Positions 12,172 to 24,954 of a stretch of 48,006 nucleotides of DNA are shown here, piece after piece (positions within the stretch are counted from its first letter, which is position 1; the number at the start of each line of letters is the position of its first letter). The translations under genes and the position numbers were made by a program. Origin of the DNA: a virus (taxonomy: Duplodnaviria > Heunggongvirae > Uroviricota > Caudoviricetes); IMG/VR virus record IMGVR_UViG_2913147268_000002; one strand, 5' to 3'. Below the pieces are notes generated by a model. It was not told where the DNA came from, searched no databases, and saw nothing but the letters and a program-made list of their open reading frames with translations.

Positions 12172-12585
12172 CTATTTTGTCTGGTTTTTGGCTTCAAGTA
12201 GTTCTTTTAGCAGTAGATCGAAGTGCTCTCTTTTTTCTTTTAGCTCATTGATTAATTTATTTTTTTCGCTCTCAGGCAGTCCTCTGAATAGTTGCAGTAG
12301 AGCCTGTTCTTGCGGGGTTAGTTCTTGATTGTAATTACCCGGGTGTAGTGTGGATTCATCCAAATATTCCCCTTCATTCATGAAGAAAAAATGAACAGGG
12401 TATCCGGTCACTTTTGCTAGCTTGTCTAATTTATCTTTTCTTGGAGTTACCCCATTACACCATGCCTGAACTGATTGAGCCGTAACCCCAATATGGCGAG
12501 CTAACTCAGATTGAGACCAGCCTAAGTCTTTTAGAATCCGTTGTAGTCGGCTAGCAAAAGCCATGTTTTTCGTTTTTGTGTTCAT
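12172..12585 (-). CDS. Phage repressor, HTH XRE family (RacR/cI-like), no S24 peptidase domain
   Basis: HTH at LGWSQSELARHIGVTAQSVQAW; short helical C-terminus without a Ser-Lys autocleavage domain; divergent from a Cro-like gene. Confidence 0.8.
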   Translation of the reverse strand: MNTKTKNMAFASRLQRILKDLGWSQSELARHIGVTAQSVQAWCNGVTPRKDKLDKLAKVTGYPVHFFFMNEGEYLDESTLHPGNYNQELTPQEQALLQLFRGLPESEKNKLINELKEKREHFDLLLKELLEAKNQTK

Positions 12586-12619
12586 ACCGTAAGGATACAA
12601 GGTTTAATTGTAGGGAGCA

Positions 12620-12662
12620 TTGCAAATATAATTTGTAATTACAGTTATTGTTTGTAATGATG
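12620..12662. promoter_or_regulatory. Candidate OR operators / divergent promoters
   Basis: Perfect 10-bp palindrome TGTAATTACA at 12634-12643 plus further TTTGTAAT repeats between the divergent repressor and cro-like genes. Confidence 0.45.
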
Positions 12663-12683
12663 ACGCGGACACAAGGAGTCCAT

Positions 12684-12914
12684 ATGGATAAACAACTGCA
12701 AGACAAAATTCTTTCCGTAATGAGTCAATCCGAGTTAGGGCGGCGATTAGGGAAAAAACCACAAACGGTAAGCCTCTGGTTCAAAGGACGGGTTCCCGGT
12801 GAAGAGGTTTTGCGCACATCTGAAGCTCTTGAATGGCGCGTGACCCCTCATGATCTTAGACCGGATCTTTACCCAAACCCAGATGACAGCTTGCCTAAAA
12901 CGGAAGCAGCTTAA
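12684..12914 (+). CDS. Cro-like HTH regulator (YdaS-like)
   Basis: Start at ATG 12684 preceded by AAGGAG; HTH-like LGRRLGKKPQTVSLWFKG; position divergent from the repressor. Confidence 0.7.
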   Translation: MDKQLQDKILSVMSQSELGRRLGKKPQTVSLWFKGRVPGEEVLRTSEALEWRVTPHDLRPDLYPNPDDSLPKTEAA

Positions 12915-12972
12915 CTGTTGGTGAGCCCCAAATCTGATTAAGCGTAATCAATTTTTAGCGACAGGAGACGCT

Positions 12973-13449
12973 ATGGAAAACCAAGAGGAATTACAAAAAG
13001 AGATTTTGACCTGGGCGGCAAGGGCAGGGCAGGAACTCGTCACGATTGAAATCTGCCGGGCCTGGTTCAGTCAGGGACGCAATGATGAGTTGAGACTACA
13101 TGAATTTGAGGACGCGGACGGCAACGTGGACTGGAGAGCCATCAACAACAATCGGCAGAAAATCTTTCGCTGGTTACGTGGCGAGACAACGGCGGCGCGC
13201 CGAAAAACTCAGGTGCTGGCCAGTGTGATGAAAGCCGTGCTACCCGCAGAACGGCGGGCACGTCTGGAGTCGCCGGGCGATCCCGTTTTGCTGGCAACGC
13301 TGGCGGCAAAAGAAGGGGTGGAAGCGATTAACGCTGTACATCTCCACTTCGCGCCAGAGTTAACTATTCAGGAAATTGACGAAGCAATAGCGGCGCTGGT
13401 AGCGACGCGAGGAGCAGTGATACGCACTGCGCAAGACCACCATGCATGA
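12973..13449 (+). CDS. YdaT-like / CII-like regulatory protein (putative)
   Basis: 158 aa directly after the cro-like gene, as in Rac-type immunity regions; assignment by position and size. Confidence 0.5.
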   Translation: MENQEELQKEILTWAARAGQELVTIEICRAWFSQGRNDELRLHEFEDADGNVDWRAINNNRQKIFRWLRGETTAARRKTQVLASVMKAVLPAERRARLESPGDPVLLATLAAKEGVEAINAVHLHFAPELTIQEIDEAIAALVATRGAVIRTAQDHHA

Positions 13450-17495: not shown

Positions 17496-17719
17496 ATTGA
17501 CTTAGAAAAAGTCCGGGGCTATAGTTTCCGCGCAGCCGCAAAATCGGTTGCCGGGATTGGCGTCCCGGATATCTAAGTGACGCATAGCCGCGTTAGCGGT
17601 TTTTTTATGTGTTAGGCACGGCCACATTCGCATTATGGTGGGCTGTGTGGGGGCTTCTGTGGAAGCGCCGGGTTCACTTAGCCGGTTACGCCAACCCTGC
17701 ACAGCTCACCACCAGATGA

Positions 17720-18556
17720 TTGGCGTCGCTGGTGGTGATGAAAAAAACACTAAGTGAGGCCACTGCGATGACAGTCCAAATATCTGCGGAATCCCTTTCT
17801 CCGCTACATCATAACCAACTTCCCGTCATCACTACTGAATTGCTTGCCAGTTTGTATGGCACGGAAGTAAATGGTATCCAGCAAAACTTCAAGCGCAACA
17901 TCGCCAGATTTGTCGTAGGAAAGCATTTTTTTAAGCTGGAAGGTAATGAATTACGCGACTTCAAAAACAGACTGACAGATAGTCAGTCAGTTGCTAAACA
18001 TACCCGATCCCTCATTCTCTGGACAGAACGCGGCGCAGCTCGCCATGCCAAAATGCTGGAAACAGAACAGGCCTGGGAAGTTTTCGAAAAGCTGGAAGAT
18101 TGTTATTTTAGCCAGCGTCCAGAGAGGCGGAGTACAACTACCGATGACCGTACTCCCTTGCGTGATGCCGTTAATATACTGGTCGGCAAGAAAGGCATGA
18201 TGTATCCCGATGCCTACACCATGATTCATCAACGCTTCGCCGTCTCTCACATAGAACAACTGTCACAGACGCAAATGTTAGAGGCGATTGAATACATCCA
18301 CTGCCTGCTACTCGATGAAAATCACCCAACCATTCCAGATTTTTCTTTTATCACCACTATCAAAAATGGAAAAGTGACCGGGATGCGCCATGTTGCCAAA
18401 GGCGAACATCTGATGACCTTTGACGCTTTCAAAGAGATCGCTGAGCGGGCAGGGTATCTGGTGATCCACAGCGACAATCTGCGAAGTATGACACTGGATA
18501 AATTGATGGTAATGGGGAAAAAGTCGGCTATATCCGTTGCTAATTCAGCATTTTGA
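17720..18556 (+). CDS. ORF6N-domain protein, putative antirepressor
   Basis: N-terminal region LPVITTELLASLYGTEVNGIQQNFKRNIARF...LILWTERGAARHAKMLETEQAWEVFEKLED resembles the ORF6N/KilA-N-related domain of phage antirepressors; start uncertain (17720, 17738 or 17768). Confidence 0.6.
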   Translation: MASLVVMKKTLSEATAMTVQISAESLSPLHHNQLPVITTELLASLYGTEVNGIQQNFKRNIARFVVGKHFFKLEGNELRDFKNRLTDSQSVAKHTRSLILWTERGAARHAKMLETEQAWEVFEKLEDCYFSQRPERRSTTTDDRTPLRDAVNILVGKKGMMYPDAYTMIHQRFAVSHIEQLSQTQMLEAIEYIHCLLLDENHPTIPDFSFITTIKNGKVTGMRHVAKGEHLMTFDAFKEIAERAGYLVIHSDNLRSMTLDKLMVMGKKSAISVANSAF

Positions 18557-18584
18557 CAGGTTGTTTGGGGCGGAAATACTCTAT

Positions 18585-18662
18585 TTGCGCTTAAAAAGGT
18601 ATTTGACCACGACCAGCACGAGACCGAATACCTCTGTCAAAGTACCGCCCATATAAAACAGT
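18585..18662. repeat. Direct repeat copy 1 (about 78 bp, about 90% identical to 22006-22084)
   Basis: On the minus strand encodes MGGTLTEVFGLVLVVVKYLFKRK plus stop, a duplicate of the 3' end of the gene at 22003-22608. Confidence 0.85.
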
Positions 18663-19654: not shown

Positions 19655-20841
19655 GAATTCCCTTTAGAGTAAGGATTGGTTTTTAAGACGCGGTCTGTAA
19701 TCAGTCCCGAGAGCTACAGTAAACAACGCTGAGCACTGAACGCATCACAGGTAAGGTAAAAGGTGATATCGGCAAAGGCTGTGAAACCTTTAATTCAACA
19801 GATGGGAACGGTATGCGCAGGATCCTGTAACGACGCTCCCAAAACCGGAAACCTGTAAGGCATGTTTTCGCTGCTGAACTTAATATACGAACCTGCACTA
19901 TCATGAACATATTTTATATCGTTATACCCCGAGTGATTGTGCCCGGCAATGGATAGTGTCCTGGAGGAACTATTTCTACTGTAAAAGGTAGATATTTAAT
20001 TTCAGTTTTGAATTATTCCCTGCTGTTAATAACAATGGCTGTATATGGCACCGAGTAGGCATTTTTTCGCTTACTGAAGGGCAGCTGTGAGCGAGGAACA
20101 GACTTTCCCTACTTCGTTGAGAGTACACCTAGTACAATCAAGGCTAAATGATAAAAATATACAAAATATCATATTTATGATATATATAATGGCATTAATC
20201 TTATTCTTGGATTACGTTGAAAGGGTAATATTATATTTGTGTAACATAGTTTAGATAACAATGCCGTTATGGGGGGGGAAAGACATTTCAACATATTAGC
20301 TTTGTATCTAACGCTCATGTAGATCTCGATTTTGAACTTAAAGAACAATTATTTTTTAGAGAGCAAGGTATTTTTGGGGAACAAAAACATAAAGTAATGG
20401 AGAGAGGAGAATGTATCAAAAAATCATCGATTTAATTTAGATTGTCCGTATAGTTGGGGGTAAGTCGAATCGCTGGGCTACATGGAATATTGTGTCAAGT
20501 AAAAATATATTTCAATCTTGCAATAACCGATTGTTGAAAATAATGTCAAATCTTAATGGTGAATGGGGAGAATATAATAAACATGAGTCGATATTATGCA
20601 AATGGATTTAAATATTTTATACCCGAAGACATAGGGTTTCGAGAGTTCGATGAGACTACTTTGAATGCTTTCGAATTTGCTGGCTAAAACATATAGGTTA
20701 TATCTTACATCTGTTTGTAATGGAGCGTAGATGCGACAAGCTACACCATAATAATCATATTATGATATATTGTTAAGTTGTTATGGCATTAAATAAAATT
20801 ATGTCATTTTGTTAACCAAGCAAGAATCAAAGGACTTTTAG

Positions 20842-21540
20842 ATGGGTACGGCATTAATTTCAAGCTTTATTAGTGGTGCAATAGCTATAATCTCTATTGC
20901 TATATCTACTTATAATCAGAATAGAATAAACAAGCTCAATGAATCACTGGATGTAAGGAGAAAACATCAGTACTATATTGAACCGTTAATTCGCTCAGCT
21001 TCAGACTTACAAAGCCGTATTTATAATATATTAGAATTGGGGTTCATTGAAGAGTTTTATCATAATGGGAATAAGCGCCAACAAGATTATGTTATCAACA
21101 ATACTGTTTTTCTTTTTTCCCAGTTTTTTGCATGGACAGAAGCTGCCCGCATAGACATTCAATACCTTAGCCTAGAAAAAAATAAAAAAATGAGGGAGTT
21201 TATTAGATTACAGAACAATATTAACTCATTAATCCAAACAGACGTCTTTGGTCAGTATTTTATGTTTTTCATAGGAGAGCAGAGAGCTATTGCAGAAAAG
21301 ATGCTGATATCAACAGATACTGGATTTGATTGCATAGGTTACGGCAGTTTCACAAAGGAAAATTGCTTTATCAATGAGCCATTTTTTTTAGATTTAAACA
21401 ATGAAGTGATAAATATGACAAGAGATATCGGAATTTATAAAGAAAGGCTAATCAGAATACAGCACGCGTTAATCGATTTAATTAATTTTCTTGATCCTGG
21501 CATGATTCGATTTGACGGAAAAAAATATGGAAAAATATAA
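20842..21540 (+). CDS. Membrane-anchored hypothetical protein (232 aa) in AT-rich cargo island
   Basis: N-terminal TM helix (TALISSFISGAIAIISIAISTY) followed by a soluble domain with no family I recognise; RBS AAAGGA; own downstream 12-bp-stem hairpin. Confidence 0.65.
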   Translation: MGTALISSFISGAIAIISIAISTYNQNRINKLNESLDVRRKHQYYIEPLIRSASDLQSRIYNILELGFIEEFYHNGNKRQQDYVINNTVFLFSQFFAWTEAARIDIQYLSLEKNKKMREFIRLQNNINSLIQTDVFGQYFMFFIGEQRAIAEKMLISTDTGFDCIGYGSFTKENCFINEPFFLDLNNEVINMTRDIGIYKERLIRIQHALIDLINFLDPGMIRFDGKKYGKI

Positions 21541-21724
21541 CCCAGATGATTCGTATCAAGGTAAGTTGCTATATGTATCAATTTAATTATGGTTGGGTGA
21601 AATTTATGTTAATAGTAGCGGAGGGTTAGTTAAAATATGCTCTCAGTGATTTTTGGATAGTTCTTTTATTTATCATTGAAAGTAAATATGTATAGCTTCA
21701 AGATTTACAAGTGAATCTGTTTAT

Positions 21725-21758
21725 TGACAGTCCGCTTATGGCACAGAGCGGACTGTCA
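21725..21758 (+). terminator. Terminator-like hairpin after the 232-aa gene
   Basis: Perfect 12-bp stem TGACAGTCCGCT / AGCGGACTGTCA with a 10-nt loop, followed by T/A-rich sequence. Confidence 0.5.
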
Positions 21759-21956
21759 TATTAAATTTGGCTCCACGCCATAGATGTGTCAGCTCATATC
21801 TTATCTAATACACACAATAACTTTCTCATTCTTGGAGAATTATTTTTTTAAGGGTAGGTGTTGACGTTAGAGCAAAAGAATGGTGATTTTTTTGATGTGT
21901 ATTACGTTGGAACTGATGGGAATAACTATCTGTTTTCAACGCACTGCTAATTTATC

Positions 21957-21978
21957 AAGGCCCTTTGATCAGGGCCTT
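21957..21978 (-). terminator. Hairpin downstream of the gene at 22003-22608
   Basis: AAGGCCCT-TTGATC-AGGGCCTT; no U-tract. Confidence 0.35.
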
Positions 21979-22002
21979 CGAAAGACTGTTGGACCGAGAG
22001 AG

Positions 22003-22608
22003 TTACTTGCGTTTAAAAAGGTATTTTGTCACGACCAGCACGAGGCCGAATACCTCTGTCAAAGTACCGCCCATGTACAACTGTAGTGTTAAATCCTCAA
22101 ATTCCAGCTTACCTGCGCCGTCGGCAATAAATACACCATTCATTATCAGAAGTTGGAAAGCAAGGATAATCAGGAACCATTTCCCGTATCGTTTTTTTAG
22201 AGCGATTTCTGCTTCAAAATCTTTGTTGTTGAGTTGTTTGCGCTCATGCTCGGTATCAAGTGAATTCACCTGTTTCACAGATGTGAACTCGGTCAAGATT
22301 TTACTCTCAGTACGGGTGACTTGTTGAGAGGGTGTAGCAGTTGGAATTCTTTTGCTAGACGCAGCTACAGCCATTTTGCGAGCTTCGGCAGCTCTTTTTC
22401 TGGCTATTCCGCGAATACGGACAGCCGTTTTTTTGGGGGCGTGCGAAACCTTTGGCTGAGGTGAAGCTTCGTCAGGAGACTGAACCGGAGTTTCATCGTC
22501 CTCCGGCTCAACCTCTTCTGCTAACTGACGGTGTAGGTTGAGGGAATCCTTCAGTCTGCGTGCTACTTCCTGTTTGAAACGGCTGTTAAAATCGTCATCC
22601 GATGGCAT
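22003..22608 (-). CDS. Membrane protein (201 aa), charged N-terminal region and two C-terminal hydrophobic helices
   Basis: WFLIILAFQLLIMNGVFIA and GGTLTEVFGLVLVVTKYLF; starts 10 nt after the ImmA-like stop, so probably co-transcribed. Confidence 0.6.
   Translation of the reverse strand: MPSDDDFNSRFKQEVARRLKDSLNLHRQLAEEVEPEDDETPVQSPDEASPQPKVSHAPKKTAVRIRGIARKRAAEARKMAVAASSKRIPTATPSQQVTRTESKILTEFTSVKQVNSLDTEHERKQLNNKDFEAEIALKKRYGKWFLIILAFQLLIMNGVFIADGAGKLEFEDLTLQLYMGGTLTEVFGLVLVVTKYLFKRK
22006..22084. repeat. Direct repeat copy 2
   Basis: Matches 18585-18662; here it is the genuine 3' end of the 201-aa gene. Confidence 0.85.
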
Positions 22609-22617
22609 TTTAAAGCG

Positions 22618-23106
22618 TTACCCCAACCTCAAGTTCTTTAAACGATAAGTCATCGCATCGTCAGATACGCCAAAATAATGCGCCATTATATAACTTGGTT
22701 GACCGTCAGCGTGCAGTTTTCTGACCTCATCTACCGGCATCAGAAGTTCTGCTGCGAACTTGTTTGCAAAAATTTCATCAGGATGCGTTCCGGCGCTTGC
22801 GGTTTCGCCACGTAAATCAACGTACTCATATTCATCGCTATGCGATGCTTGCCGGGCGATGTAATGCCCCAACTCATGCCCACATGAAAAACGTTGACGA
22901 ACTTTGTTGTCATCACTGTTTAGAAAGATCGCTGGATCTTGATCTTTTTGTTTAATCAGTGCGCCAGAAACTTTCCCAGGAAGATCGGTAATAAAAACAT
23001 CTAATCCCATGTCGTGAGCAATTTTCGCTGGATCAACAGGGAAACCACGCCCGCACCAGAACGTGTCCAGCACTCGCCGGGCGTGCTCTCTTGGGTTGGT
23101 AGCCAT
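22618..23106 (-). CDS. ImmA/IrrE-family zinc metallopeptidase (COG2856-like)
   Basis: HEXXH in FSCGHELGHYI and downstream EIFANKFAAELLMP motif; strong RBS GGAGGA. Confidence 0.8.
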   Translation of the reverse strand: MATNPREHARRVLDTFWCGRGFPVDPAKIAHDMGLDVFITDLPGKVSGALIKQKDQDPAIFLNSDDNKVRQRFSCGHELGHYIARQASHSDEYEYVDLRGETASAGTHPDEIFANKFAAELLMPVDEVRKLHADGQPSYIMAHYFGVSDDAMTYRLKNLRLG

Positions 23107-23504
23107 AGCTCCTCCAGTTACTGCATTACGATTATTGGTTGAAATATAGACAGCATGTTCCGTACCACATTCCTGTAAAAGTGCAAATTCTGCACTTCTG
23201 GTACGATATTAACTGTTAGTAGTAAAGTCTTCCAGATAAATCACTTTAAAATCTTGTGAATTGCTTGCTTTTTACGCTGTATTGTGGATGGTTCAATGTT
23301 TCCAGTAAAAACATACATGATAATCATGAGTTTAGTGTTTTTTTAGGCGTCTATATGTTTCTGGAAAATACAGGTCTAACCTGATCTTATCGTTGAGATT
23401 TTTTGTACTCAGTATGCGTGAACGATTCGACCAGGTGACTGTGTACGTGAAGAAGACCGCCCTTAATATTTTAAATGTGCAACCCCTCAGAAGAGGGGCT
23501 ACTC

Positions 23505-23738
23505 TCACTTCTGCAGTATCTCGCCAATACCTGCCAGATTCTCGTCCATCTTGTCACCGTTTTCGATAAGGATGGAGTTGAGCCGATTCAGTTGCATAGC
23601 AATTTCAAGTTTGATTAAGGTATCCACCGATACACCAGTTTCTTTTGCTAACTTAGTAAGAGCCGCAGCTCGATTGGCTAAATTAAAATCATCGAACTCA
23701 TAACGACTTCTGCACGGCTGGTTGCCTAACGTACCCAT
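23505..23738 (-). CDS. Hypothetical protein (77 aa)
   Basis: ORF with a downstream hairpin (CCCCTC-AGAA-GAGGGG); possible HTH-like segment, unverified. Confidence 0.4.
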   Translation of the reverse strand: MGTLGNQPCRSRYEFDDFNLANRAAALTKLAKETGVSVDTLIKLEIAMQLNRLNSILIENGDKMDENLAGIGEILQK

Positions 23739-24623: not shown

Positions 24624-24774
24624 TGACCATAAACGGTTTAATCCCCTATAAAACCGTTTAATAAAATTCACGACGTGAATATAATTGTTCATTATTCCCT
24701 CATTGTATTTGGCGTTATGACAAATGCCATAAAATACTGTATAAATATACAGGTTGTGGCATTGGGGGGAAGAC

Positions 24775-24954
24775 ATGAATATTCAAGAATCTATAGGCGA
24801 ACTACCGGAAACATGCCGGGCTGTTATCAAGCGTAAGGACGGACACATCGTTGGTGTGCGTGTTCTGACCGATGATGAGCGGATTGCCAGCCTGATGGCG
24901 TTTCTCGAGTTGGCAGAAATAGCTGGATATACTATTACACCCCCTGACGCGTAA
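24775..24954 (+). CDS. Hypothetical protein (about 59 aa)
   Basis: ATG at 24775 preceded by a G-rich RBS. Confidence 0.35.
   Translation: MNIQESIGELPETCRAVIKRKDGHIVGVRVLTDDERIASLMAFLELAEIAGYTITPPDA

Follow-up and report, generated by a model that had tools for sequence, protein, structure and literature searches.

The 48-kb stretch of DNA analyzed here (IMG/VR record IMGVR_UViG_2913147268_000002; 48,006 nucleotides [nt], hereafter the window) is a lambdoid prophage of Escherichia coli. On its minus strand, between positions 22003 and 23106, lie two genes, one for a small metallopeptidase and, directly downstream, one for a predicted membrane protein (the partner), which by homology appear to be related to the RosmerTA toxin–antitoxin (TA) pair of Gordonia phage Kita. 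In existing E. coli annotation, they are an "ImmA/IrrE family metallo-endopeptidase" and a "hypothetical protein". The pair consists of the following elements, listed in the direction of transcription:

23111-23115, minus strand: Shine-Dalgarno sequence GGAGG, 4 nt 5′ of the protease ATG, the only upstream element kept across lineages
22618-23106, minus strand: protease gene for a predicted RmrA-like stand-alone ImmA/IrrE (M78) zinc metallopeptidase of 162 amino acids (aa), assigned from Pfam, PADLOC, identity to the Kita protein, and the AlphaFold2 model
22609-22617, minus strand: intergenic spacer of 9 nt, read from the sequence
22003-22608, minus strand: partner gene for a predicted RmrT-D5-like membrane toxin of 201 aa, assigned from alignment, AlphaFold2 model, charge profile, hidden Markov model (HMM), and hhalign
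22192-22198, minus strand: run of seven A (A7, coding strand) in the codons L-K-K just 5′ of the first transmembrane (TM) helix, a recurrent frameshift site

An earlier note, made from the letters of the window and without database searches, had ascribed a HEXXH peptidase signature to the 162-aa protein, which was confirmed. The Pfam family Peptidase_M78 (PF06114, IrrE N-terminal-like) matched residues 32-157 (E = 7.7e-18), and the motif is composed of H77-E-L-G-H81 (HEXXH) and an E111-IFANKFAAELLMP segment. H77, E78, H81, and E111 were unchanged in the 21 protease homologues aligned, down to 44% identity; by analogy to IrrE, E111 is probably the third zinc ligand. C75, which is clade-specific, was likewise invariant in this set. 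The AlphaFold2 model of the protease (predicted local distance difference test [pLDDT] 90.5, predicted template modeling score 0.87) and its sequence both placed CapP (7t5t) and IrrE/PprI (3dte) closest among solved structures. The chain ends after the peptidase core and contains neither a helix-turn-helix (HTH) nor a GAF domain; close relatives are all single-domain proteins of ∼160–190 aa. In agreement with this size, the PADLOC profile for capP (E = 2.4e-25) covered positions 3-151 of 242 only, and the RmrA profiles matched in part, down to 5.8e-12, at positions ∼145-290 (peptidase segment only).

The partner ORF begins 9 nt after the stop of the protease gene and is in the same frame, with the TAA and three codons between the two, which suggests a bicistronic, probably translationally coupled operon. 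Thus, the next gene had been described correctly as encoding 201 aa with a charged N-terminus and two C-terminal TM helices, except that the spacing is 9 nt and not 10 bp. No Pfam family matched the partner, PADLOC gave only a chance-level match to JetC, and the sole family assignment was phrog_5346, of unknown function. In the AlphaFold2 model (pLDDT 62), a helix (residues 4-32) is followed by a disordered region (33-119), by a single long helix comprising the juxtamembrane segment and TM1 (120-164), and, after a short loop, by TM2 (174-199). Conservation follows the same partition: the N-terminal helix and the juxtamembrane/TM1 helix are conserved, the linker (33-119) is hypervariable, TM2 is near-invariant, and the C-terminal tail is basic. 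Across the family, the linker varies between ∼20 and ∼130 aa and its sequence is not conserved; the N-terminal helix is conserved in Enterobacterales only, and in many members of the family the N-terminal region is very short. Since basic residues precede TM1 and follow TM2, the hairpin is predicted to be oriented N-in/C-in, with both ends in the cytoplasm; the first ∼143 residues should therefore be open to a cytoplasmic protease.

Partner homologues were collected first from Enterobacterales, and their alignment was then used as query against genomes, viral contigs, and metagenomes. A partner locus was counted when the TM domain was intact and enough upstream DNA was available (three failures were contig-end truncations); one Salmonella locus with a truncated protease was left out because both of its genes are multiply frameshifted, probably an assembly-quality problem. 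Irrespective of host, a protease homologue (39–100% identical) was found directly upstream on the same strand in 33 of the 33 testable loci, from hosts including Escherichia, Leclercia, Buttiauxella, Thalassotalea, Gallibacterium, Microbulbifer, a Desulfuromonas metagenome-assembled genome (MAG), and a MAG labeled Rhodococcus. Reverse look-ups at ∼55% protease identity (Pectobacterium and Silvimonas) found a partner-family gene downstream in both cases. When the protease alignment was the query, 80 viral contigs were retrieved. Of the 75 distinct loci whose downstream DNA was long enough, 69 have an ORF with a hydrophobic TM segment downstream on the same strand, against a background of 74/394 (19%) for similar-sized ORFs in the same loci. 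The pairing of protease and TM protein is far beyond chance.

The downstream proteins of the clade share an architecture, a charged or disordered N-terminus followed by one or two C-terminal TM helices, and fall into several sequence groups, the family of the window (46 loci) and at least four more, which the protease tree follows. Within the family of the window, divergence of protease and of partner was correlated (Mantel r = 0.84, a value to which shared descent contributes and which 0/2,000 permutations reached). This shows that protease and partner are inherited together, and the co-occurrence of the two genes in other genomes, which the earlier note had proposed to check, is that of a conserved unit. 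Overall, a single protease clade has switched among small TM partners from at least three to five unrelated families, and in no case is its partner an HTH protein. The absence of an adjacent HTH partner had been claimed for the window, and indeed, when all ORFs of at least 30 aa around the pair were listed, no HTH gene was among them, including any overlooked small one that could form an ImmR-ImmA pair. The 58-aa and 77-aa ORFs in the upstream flank (23107-23738) belong to no Pfam family, and the 77-aa protein has no meaningful sequence match in the PDB. Among the 55 plausible upstream neighbors of clade loci, XRE-type HTH proteins were likewise absent (0/55); lack of an HTH partner thus characterizes the entire clade and is not peculiar to the window.

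The pair can be linked to a system that has been studied experimentally. Ernits et al (2023) described an ImmA-protease antitoxin hub (node D25 of NetFlax, "Rosmer") paired with many toxins, and tested the pair of Gordonia phage Kita (PMC10440598). RmrT-D5 from Kita has no recognizable domain and its C-terminus is membrane-localized; when produced alone in E. coli, it caused immediate growth arrest, depolarized and permeabilized the membrane, formed pores, and shut down macromolecular synthesis (PMC10440598). The complete operon shielded E. coli from the phages Bas54 and Bas59 (PMC10440598). In the supplement of that study, Kita gp32 and gp33 (YP_009301393/4) are RmrA-D25/RmrT-D5 (PMC10440598).

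Within the phage collection searched, the top match of the window protease outside E. coli was Kita gp32 together with its identical copies in closely related Gordonia phages (44% identity, residues 9-159, E = 5e-31). It is followed by gp33, the same gene order as in the window, with the two Kita genes overlapping by 4 nt. When the partner was compared directly by tblastn with 50,697 phage records, no match was obtained, and its link to Kita RmrT is by profiles only. An iterated HMM, widened exclusively via hits of the family of the window, reached Kita gp33 with E = 7e-13 (at Z = 1e6) and missed 31 other downstream ORFs outside this family (family A), most of them small TM proteins. Alignment of the partner family to gp33 with hhalign, an independent profile-profile method, gave a probability of 95.4% (E = 1.7e-8) over 64 columns comprising the juxtamembrane helix, TM1, and TM2. 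The core common to both has a Q and an N inside TM1, an E inside TM2, and a Y/x-L-F tail. An exhaustive profile search returned 644 cluster representatives, all of them small proteins matching via the C-terminal hairpin. Thus, the search for remote homologues of the 201-aa partner was successful, and the profiles identify it as a probable remote homologue of Kita RmrT-D5. By homology, the E. coli pair would belong to the known D25:D5 subtype of RosmerTA, as a relative that had not been annotated as such; a search of the literature and of the NetFlax supplementary tables, of which one was available in part, did not turn up its accessions.

Based on this relationship, the pair is probably a RosmerTA-type TA or abortive-infection cassette carried as prophage cargo (a moron). 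The features of RosmerTA in the broad sense (the D25 hub) are present, namely, an M78 antitoxin with an intact metal-binding motif and a conserved, co-oriented partner; so is the one that marks the D25:D5 subtype, a partner predicted to be homologous to the RmrT-D5 hairpin, the matched region being mostly transmembrane. We infer that the E. coli pair acts in the same way as that of Kita, and likewise infer the proteolytic nature of neutralization and the trigger. The 201-aa protein would enter the inner membrane as an N-in/C-in helical hairpin and, if unrestrained, would form an oligomeric pore and cause depolarization. In the lysogen, the co-translated 162-aa ImmA-type zinc protease would keep it harmless, probably by acting on the cytoplasmic linker or on the conserved juxtamembrane helix, and possibly by handing the toxin to ClpXP. 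The balance of protease and toxin would be upset when a competing phage infects or when the cassette is lost, and the freed toxin would collapse the membrane potential, whereby the infection would be aborted or the segregant killed.

Several observations bear on individual steps of this scheme. The invariance of the catalytic residues across the clade argues that catalysis, rather than mere binding, matters. Because the linker varies between ∼20 and ∼130 aa without conserved sequence, the juxtamembrane helix is the better candidate for recognition. In transposon sequencing (Tn-seq) data, rmrA was essential, and clpX was essential in Rosmer-bearing strains only (PMC13566846), which hints at a hand-off to ClpXP, although those systems are of the canonical HTH-fused type. 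The re-pairing of one protease clade with unrelated TM families suggests that the protease may recognize a generic membrane-proximal feature, which would make it a promiscuous enzymatic antitoxin. More tentatively, and with rather less confidence than in the cassette as a whole, the substrate of the protease might be the membrane toxin itself, which, if true, would be the first non-HTH-repressor target of an ImmA/IrrE-family protease. The protease would then constantly trim or degrade the linker or the juxtamembrane helix and thereby sense infection; when blocked by a phage product or by lost synthesis, full-length toxin would form the pore.

The genomic contexts of the pair are diverse and comprise the lambdoid nin region, Mu-like phages, P4-like satellites and integrative islands, the P2-like gpA-gpQ hotspot, a site after sucCD, and positions beside other TA genes or beside a large methylase-like ORF (called by eye from its N-terminal sequence). 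In three loci (L040, L041, and L005), a tRNA gene (tRNA-Ser in two, tRNA-Pro in one) lies 220–330 nt upstream of the start of the pair, which thus comes first among the cargo at the border of a tRNA-integrated element. In the P2-like phage NC_070905.1 (L139/L143; 31040-32216), the gpA-gpQ hotspot contains a same-clade protease (37% identity) beside a different small TM protein, gp42 (207 aa as extended ORF, 159 aa as annotated). The occurrence in this hotspot, in P4-like satellites, at tRNA-edge islands, and next to TA genes supports a defense-type role. Further variants are encoded by mycobacteriophage Che9c (gp33) and by several Gordonia phages.

Some points weigh against the assignment as a RosmerTA-type cassette. 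RmrA-D25 neutralizes RmrT-D5 only partly, and AlphaFold could not model the Kita complex (PMC10440598). The match of partner and Kita RmrT extends over ∼64 columns and is largely transmembrane, a composition that can inflate scores. About 6 of the 75 protease-clade loci are true exceptions without a TM partner. The window pair also falls outside the definition of canonical Rosmer used by the detection tools, there being no HTH-fused RmrA and no PADLOC match for the partner. Finally, toxicity and defense are known from the Kita homologue, and the behavior of the E. coli pair in its host would follow by analogy. Frameshifts at the A7 run, which in the independent sequences P0002, P0004, and Salmonella locus L142 result in TM-less partner alleles, could be sequencing errors or a mutational off-switch of the toxin, and their recurrence is at most a weak hint at toxicity of the partner. 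In four genomes, IS1 has inserted downstream of both genes, neither of which is disrupted.

The earlier note had proposed a protease-gated membrane effector for exclusion or abortive infection. Its outline matches Kita RosmerTA, but its polarity is probably reversed, given that in Kita the membrane protein needs no protease to be toxic and the protease is a partial antitoxin. Taken literally, a signal-switched protease would remove an N-terminal inhibitory region from a pro-form and thereby release a pore, as for bacterial gasdermins. The invariant catalytic residues would fit such activation, as would the disordered cytoplasmic linker, which is long and separates a conserved N-terminal helix from a pore-like hairpin, and the fact that the relatives CapP and IrrE are signal-activated proteases. 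However, the N-terminal helix is confined to Enterobacterales, with very short N-terminal regions in many members of the family. The GAF domain, which in CapP and IrrE forms the groove for sensing single-stranded DNA (ssDNA), is missing from the protease. Kita RmrT-D5 without its protease is toxic and depolarizing in E. coli, and the protease lowers its toxicity. Literal protease-gated activation is therefore disfavored and we consider it unlikely; by analogy to Kita, the most likely role of the protease is to hold the membrane toxin in check, not to activate it. That the module would serve solely for addiction, keeping the prophage or its cargo by post-segregational killing with no anti-phage role, is compatible with the TA architecture, with locations next to other TA genes and at the borders of integrative elements, and with the essentiality of rmrA-type antitoxins in the Tn-seq data (PMC13566846). 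Against it speak the phage protection conferred by the Kita homologue and the related pair in the P2 gpA-gpQ anti-phage hotspot, and we regard a purely addictive function as quite improbable. Addiction and defense are not mutually exclusive, and sequence alone cannot separate them. The N-in/C-in two-helix hairpin with its basic C-terminal tail would also suit a holin- or pinholin-like protein, or a superinfection-exclusion protein of the phage life cycle, with the protease as a timer; in a Mu-like Desulfuromonas phage, the pair indeed lies between Mor and an amidase-like gene (called by eye). But satellites, islands, and chromosomal sites that have no lysis genes also carry the pair, and the window phage owns a holin/endolysin cassette at 26.6–27.8 kb on the other strand, the pair being transcribed opposite to the late genes. 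Identification of the partner as a holin or pinholin was rejected on this placement, and a role in lysis or exclusion is the least probable of the alternatives considered.

Instead of a membrane protein, the phage repressor might be the target. The earlier note had suggested that the protease acts in trans on the repressor, and had described the latter as lacking an autocleavage domain. The features concerned are the following:

12172-12564: phage repressor, 130 aa, HTH_3 only, no S24 domain
17519-17716, plus strand: isrK (80 bits), C4 antisense RNA (75 bits), and c4 a1b1 target element (Rfam)
17720-18556, plus strand: ORF6N-domain gene, immediately after the isrK/C4/a1b1 elements
24717-24954, plus strand: promoter-like site (aTGACA, 17-nt spacer, TATAAA) followed by a 59-aa ORF
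24737-24752, plus strand: perfect LexA box CTGTATAAATATACAG, the only one in 48 kb, overlapping the -10 element (TATAAA)
24775-24954, plus strand: 59-aa ORF, phrog_340, no Pfam family, directly after the LexA-box promoter

The repressor is part of an immunity region (12172-13449) of the RacR/YdaS/YdaT type, which comprises the HTH_3 repressor, a divergent YdaS-like Cro (12684-12914), and a YdaT-family protein (12973-13449). The lack of an S24 autocleavage domain was verified and counts in favor of an antirepressor function of the protease: similar to ImmA acting on ImmR, the protease would cleave the HTH-only repressor, and the membrane protein would be accessory or regulatory. Moreover, ImmA-family proteases classically cleave XRE repressors, and in E. 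coli the pair (453 genomes) and the immunity region (437 genomes) nearly always occur together. Since a single, clonally spread prophage contains both, this co-occurrence carries no information; elsewhere, the pair is accompanied by unrelated immunity modules or by none, also outside phages, and no member of the clade has an adjacent HTH gene. In addition, the LexA box and the C4/isrK RNA devices already account for induction of repressors of the RacR/Gifsy type. An inverted repeat (AAACGGTTT...AAACCGTTT) precedes the LexA-box promoter of the 59-aa ORF, and since the repressor is HTH-only and the LexA box lies over the promoter, this ORF is a candidate for a small SOS-controlled antirepressor of the Gifsy/186 type. 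Gifsy-type prophages with RacR/DicA-like repressors have been described to carry small, LexA-controlled antirepressors in the same arrangement (PMC3121763). Thus, with a pair that is independent of immunity modules and two conventional derepression devices in the window, proteolysis of the repressor in trans is unsupported and very unlikely. The isrK/C4 RNA in front of the ORF6N gene resembles a P1-type C4/Ant antirepressor control of immunity, here within a lambdoid prophage.

The flanks of the RosmerTA-like pair contain further elements:

23479-23502, minus strand: strong hairpin that ends the upstream 77-aa gene (RNA fold z = -4.6)
23161-23205, minus strand: nested hairpin/palindrome CGTACC...AAGTGCA-N5-TGCACTT...GGTACG (RNA fold z = -4.2)
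21955-21981, minus strand: GC-rich 8-bp hairpin ∼20–22 nt after the partner stop, terminator-like, with a weak U tract

Set apart by its own hairpin, the 77-aa gene is a unit separate from the protease operon. The palindrome is located in the 5′ region of the operon, 55–100 nt 5′ of the protease ATG. Only members of the same phage lineage retain it, and it is therefore not a module-wide operator. DNA upstream of the pair is not conserved between lineages except for the ribosome-binding site, and neither the upstream alignment nor a LexA box scan of the window revealed a conserved operator or a LexA box in front of the protease gene. The fold of the downstream region as a whole was no better than that of shuffled sequences (z = -0.4), and a terminator role of the hairpin at 21955-21981 is only suggested.

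In the window, the pair lies within a mosaic cargo region, with replication genes on one side and DUF1367, DUF1364, and Q genes on the other. Base composition differs among the neighbors, the pair having ∼46% GC and the adjoining block 32% GC. Among 5,426 complete E. coli genomes, the pair was present in 453 (∼8%), always on the chromosome and in one widespread prophage. The 32% GC block (19800-21900) contains a gene (20842-21540, plus strand) for a 232-aa protein with an N-terminal TM segment (phrog_5606), which weakly matched the PADLOC model RTasTM associated with DRT (defense-associated reverse transcriptase; E = 1.8e-5). On the strength of this match, it may be a further defense-related moron beside the Rosmer-like pair. 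A 25-aa in-frame 3′ remnant of a second partner copy (FYMGGTLTEVFGLVLVVVKYLFKRK; 92% aa and 89% nt identity) is present at 18584-18658 on the minus strand, just downstream of an LprI-like gene, and 17 further lambdoid loci (L025-L033, L046-L048, and L050-L054) contain similar remnants of 25–28 aa but no protease gene with them. This distribution suggests that the conserved 3′ end of the toxin gene may be a recurrent recombination junction for the exchange of cargo.

The link to Kita gives the E. coli genes a testable function, and this in the organism in which the Kita system was assayed. The D25:D5 subtype would no longer be confined to actinophages but would include Proteobacteria together with their phages and satellites (644 cluster representatives), and an entire clade of stand-alone ImmA proteases appears to be devoted to small membrane proteins and not to HTH repressors. 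Being abundant and native, and having a long and variable cytoplasmic linker, the E. coli pair would be a convenient model for how a protease neutralizes a membrane toxin.

Among known systems, the clpP-dependent prophage TA module (E101_02645/02644) reported by Rousset (2021) was considered and rejected as a different module, in which the toxin gene is first. ImmR/ImmA of ICEBs1, DdrO/IrrE of Deinococcus, and CapH/CapP, regulators of CBASS, the anti-phage system that signals through cyclic oligonucleotides, share the protease fold and the catalytic motif with the window pair. In those systems, however, ImmA, IrrE, and CapP cleave an adjacent XRE-family HTH repressor, whereas the window protease adjoins a conserved membrane protein; CapP and IrrE furthermore carry the C-terminal GAF domain with its ssDNA-sensing groove and measure ∼290 aa (CapP chain, 291 aa), compared with 162 aa here. 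An ImmR/ImmA-type module was rejected because neither the flanks nor the 55 upstream neighbors of the clade contain an adjacent XRE HTH ORF, and a CapH/CapP module because the GAF domain (capP profile 3-151 of 242) and an HTH neighbor are missing. PanA-PanT toxins and RexAB of lambda resemble the proposed system in having a small depolarizing membrane effector under cytoplasmic restraint, in being prophage-borne, and in an abortive-infection-type outcome, but the proteins are unrelated and the cytoplasmic partner there is not a protease.

Canonical RosmerTA, for which anti-phage protection was demonstrated by Millman et al (2022), has, as defined in PADLOC and DefenseFinder, an M78 zinc peptidase antitoxin beside a toxin of unknown function, as does the window. 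Canonical RmrA is much larger (∼360–400 aa, with an N-terminal Xre HTH), the 162-aa window protease matching its peptidase segment only; the canonical RmrT families do not match the window partner, and the canonical gene order is often toxin first. The Kita system comes closest. It originates from another host phylum and phage type, and its toxin has 119 aa, compared with 201 aa in the window, where a conserved N-terminal helix and a linker of ∼85 aa are additionally present. The Kita pair was assayed experimentally, the E. coli pair is known here from its sequence, and identity between the toxins is low and detectable by profiles only. Yet, both are phage-borne two-gene operons with the protease gene first, both encode a stand-alone ImmA-type protease of ∼160–180 aa without an HTH domain, and in both the N-terminus of the small partner is acidic or disordered and its C-terminus forms a TM hairpin with the TM2 motif T/S-x-x-E-V-x-G...L-F.

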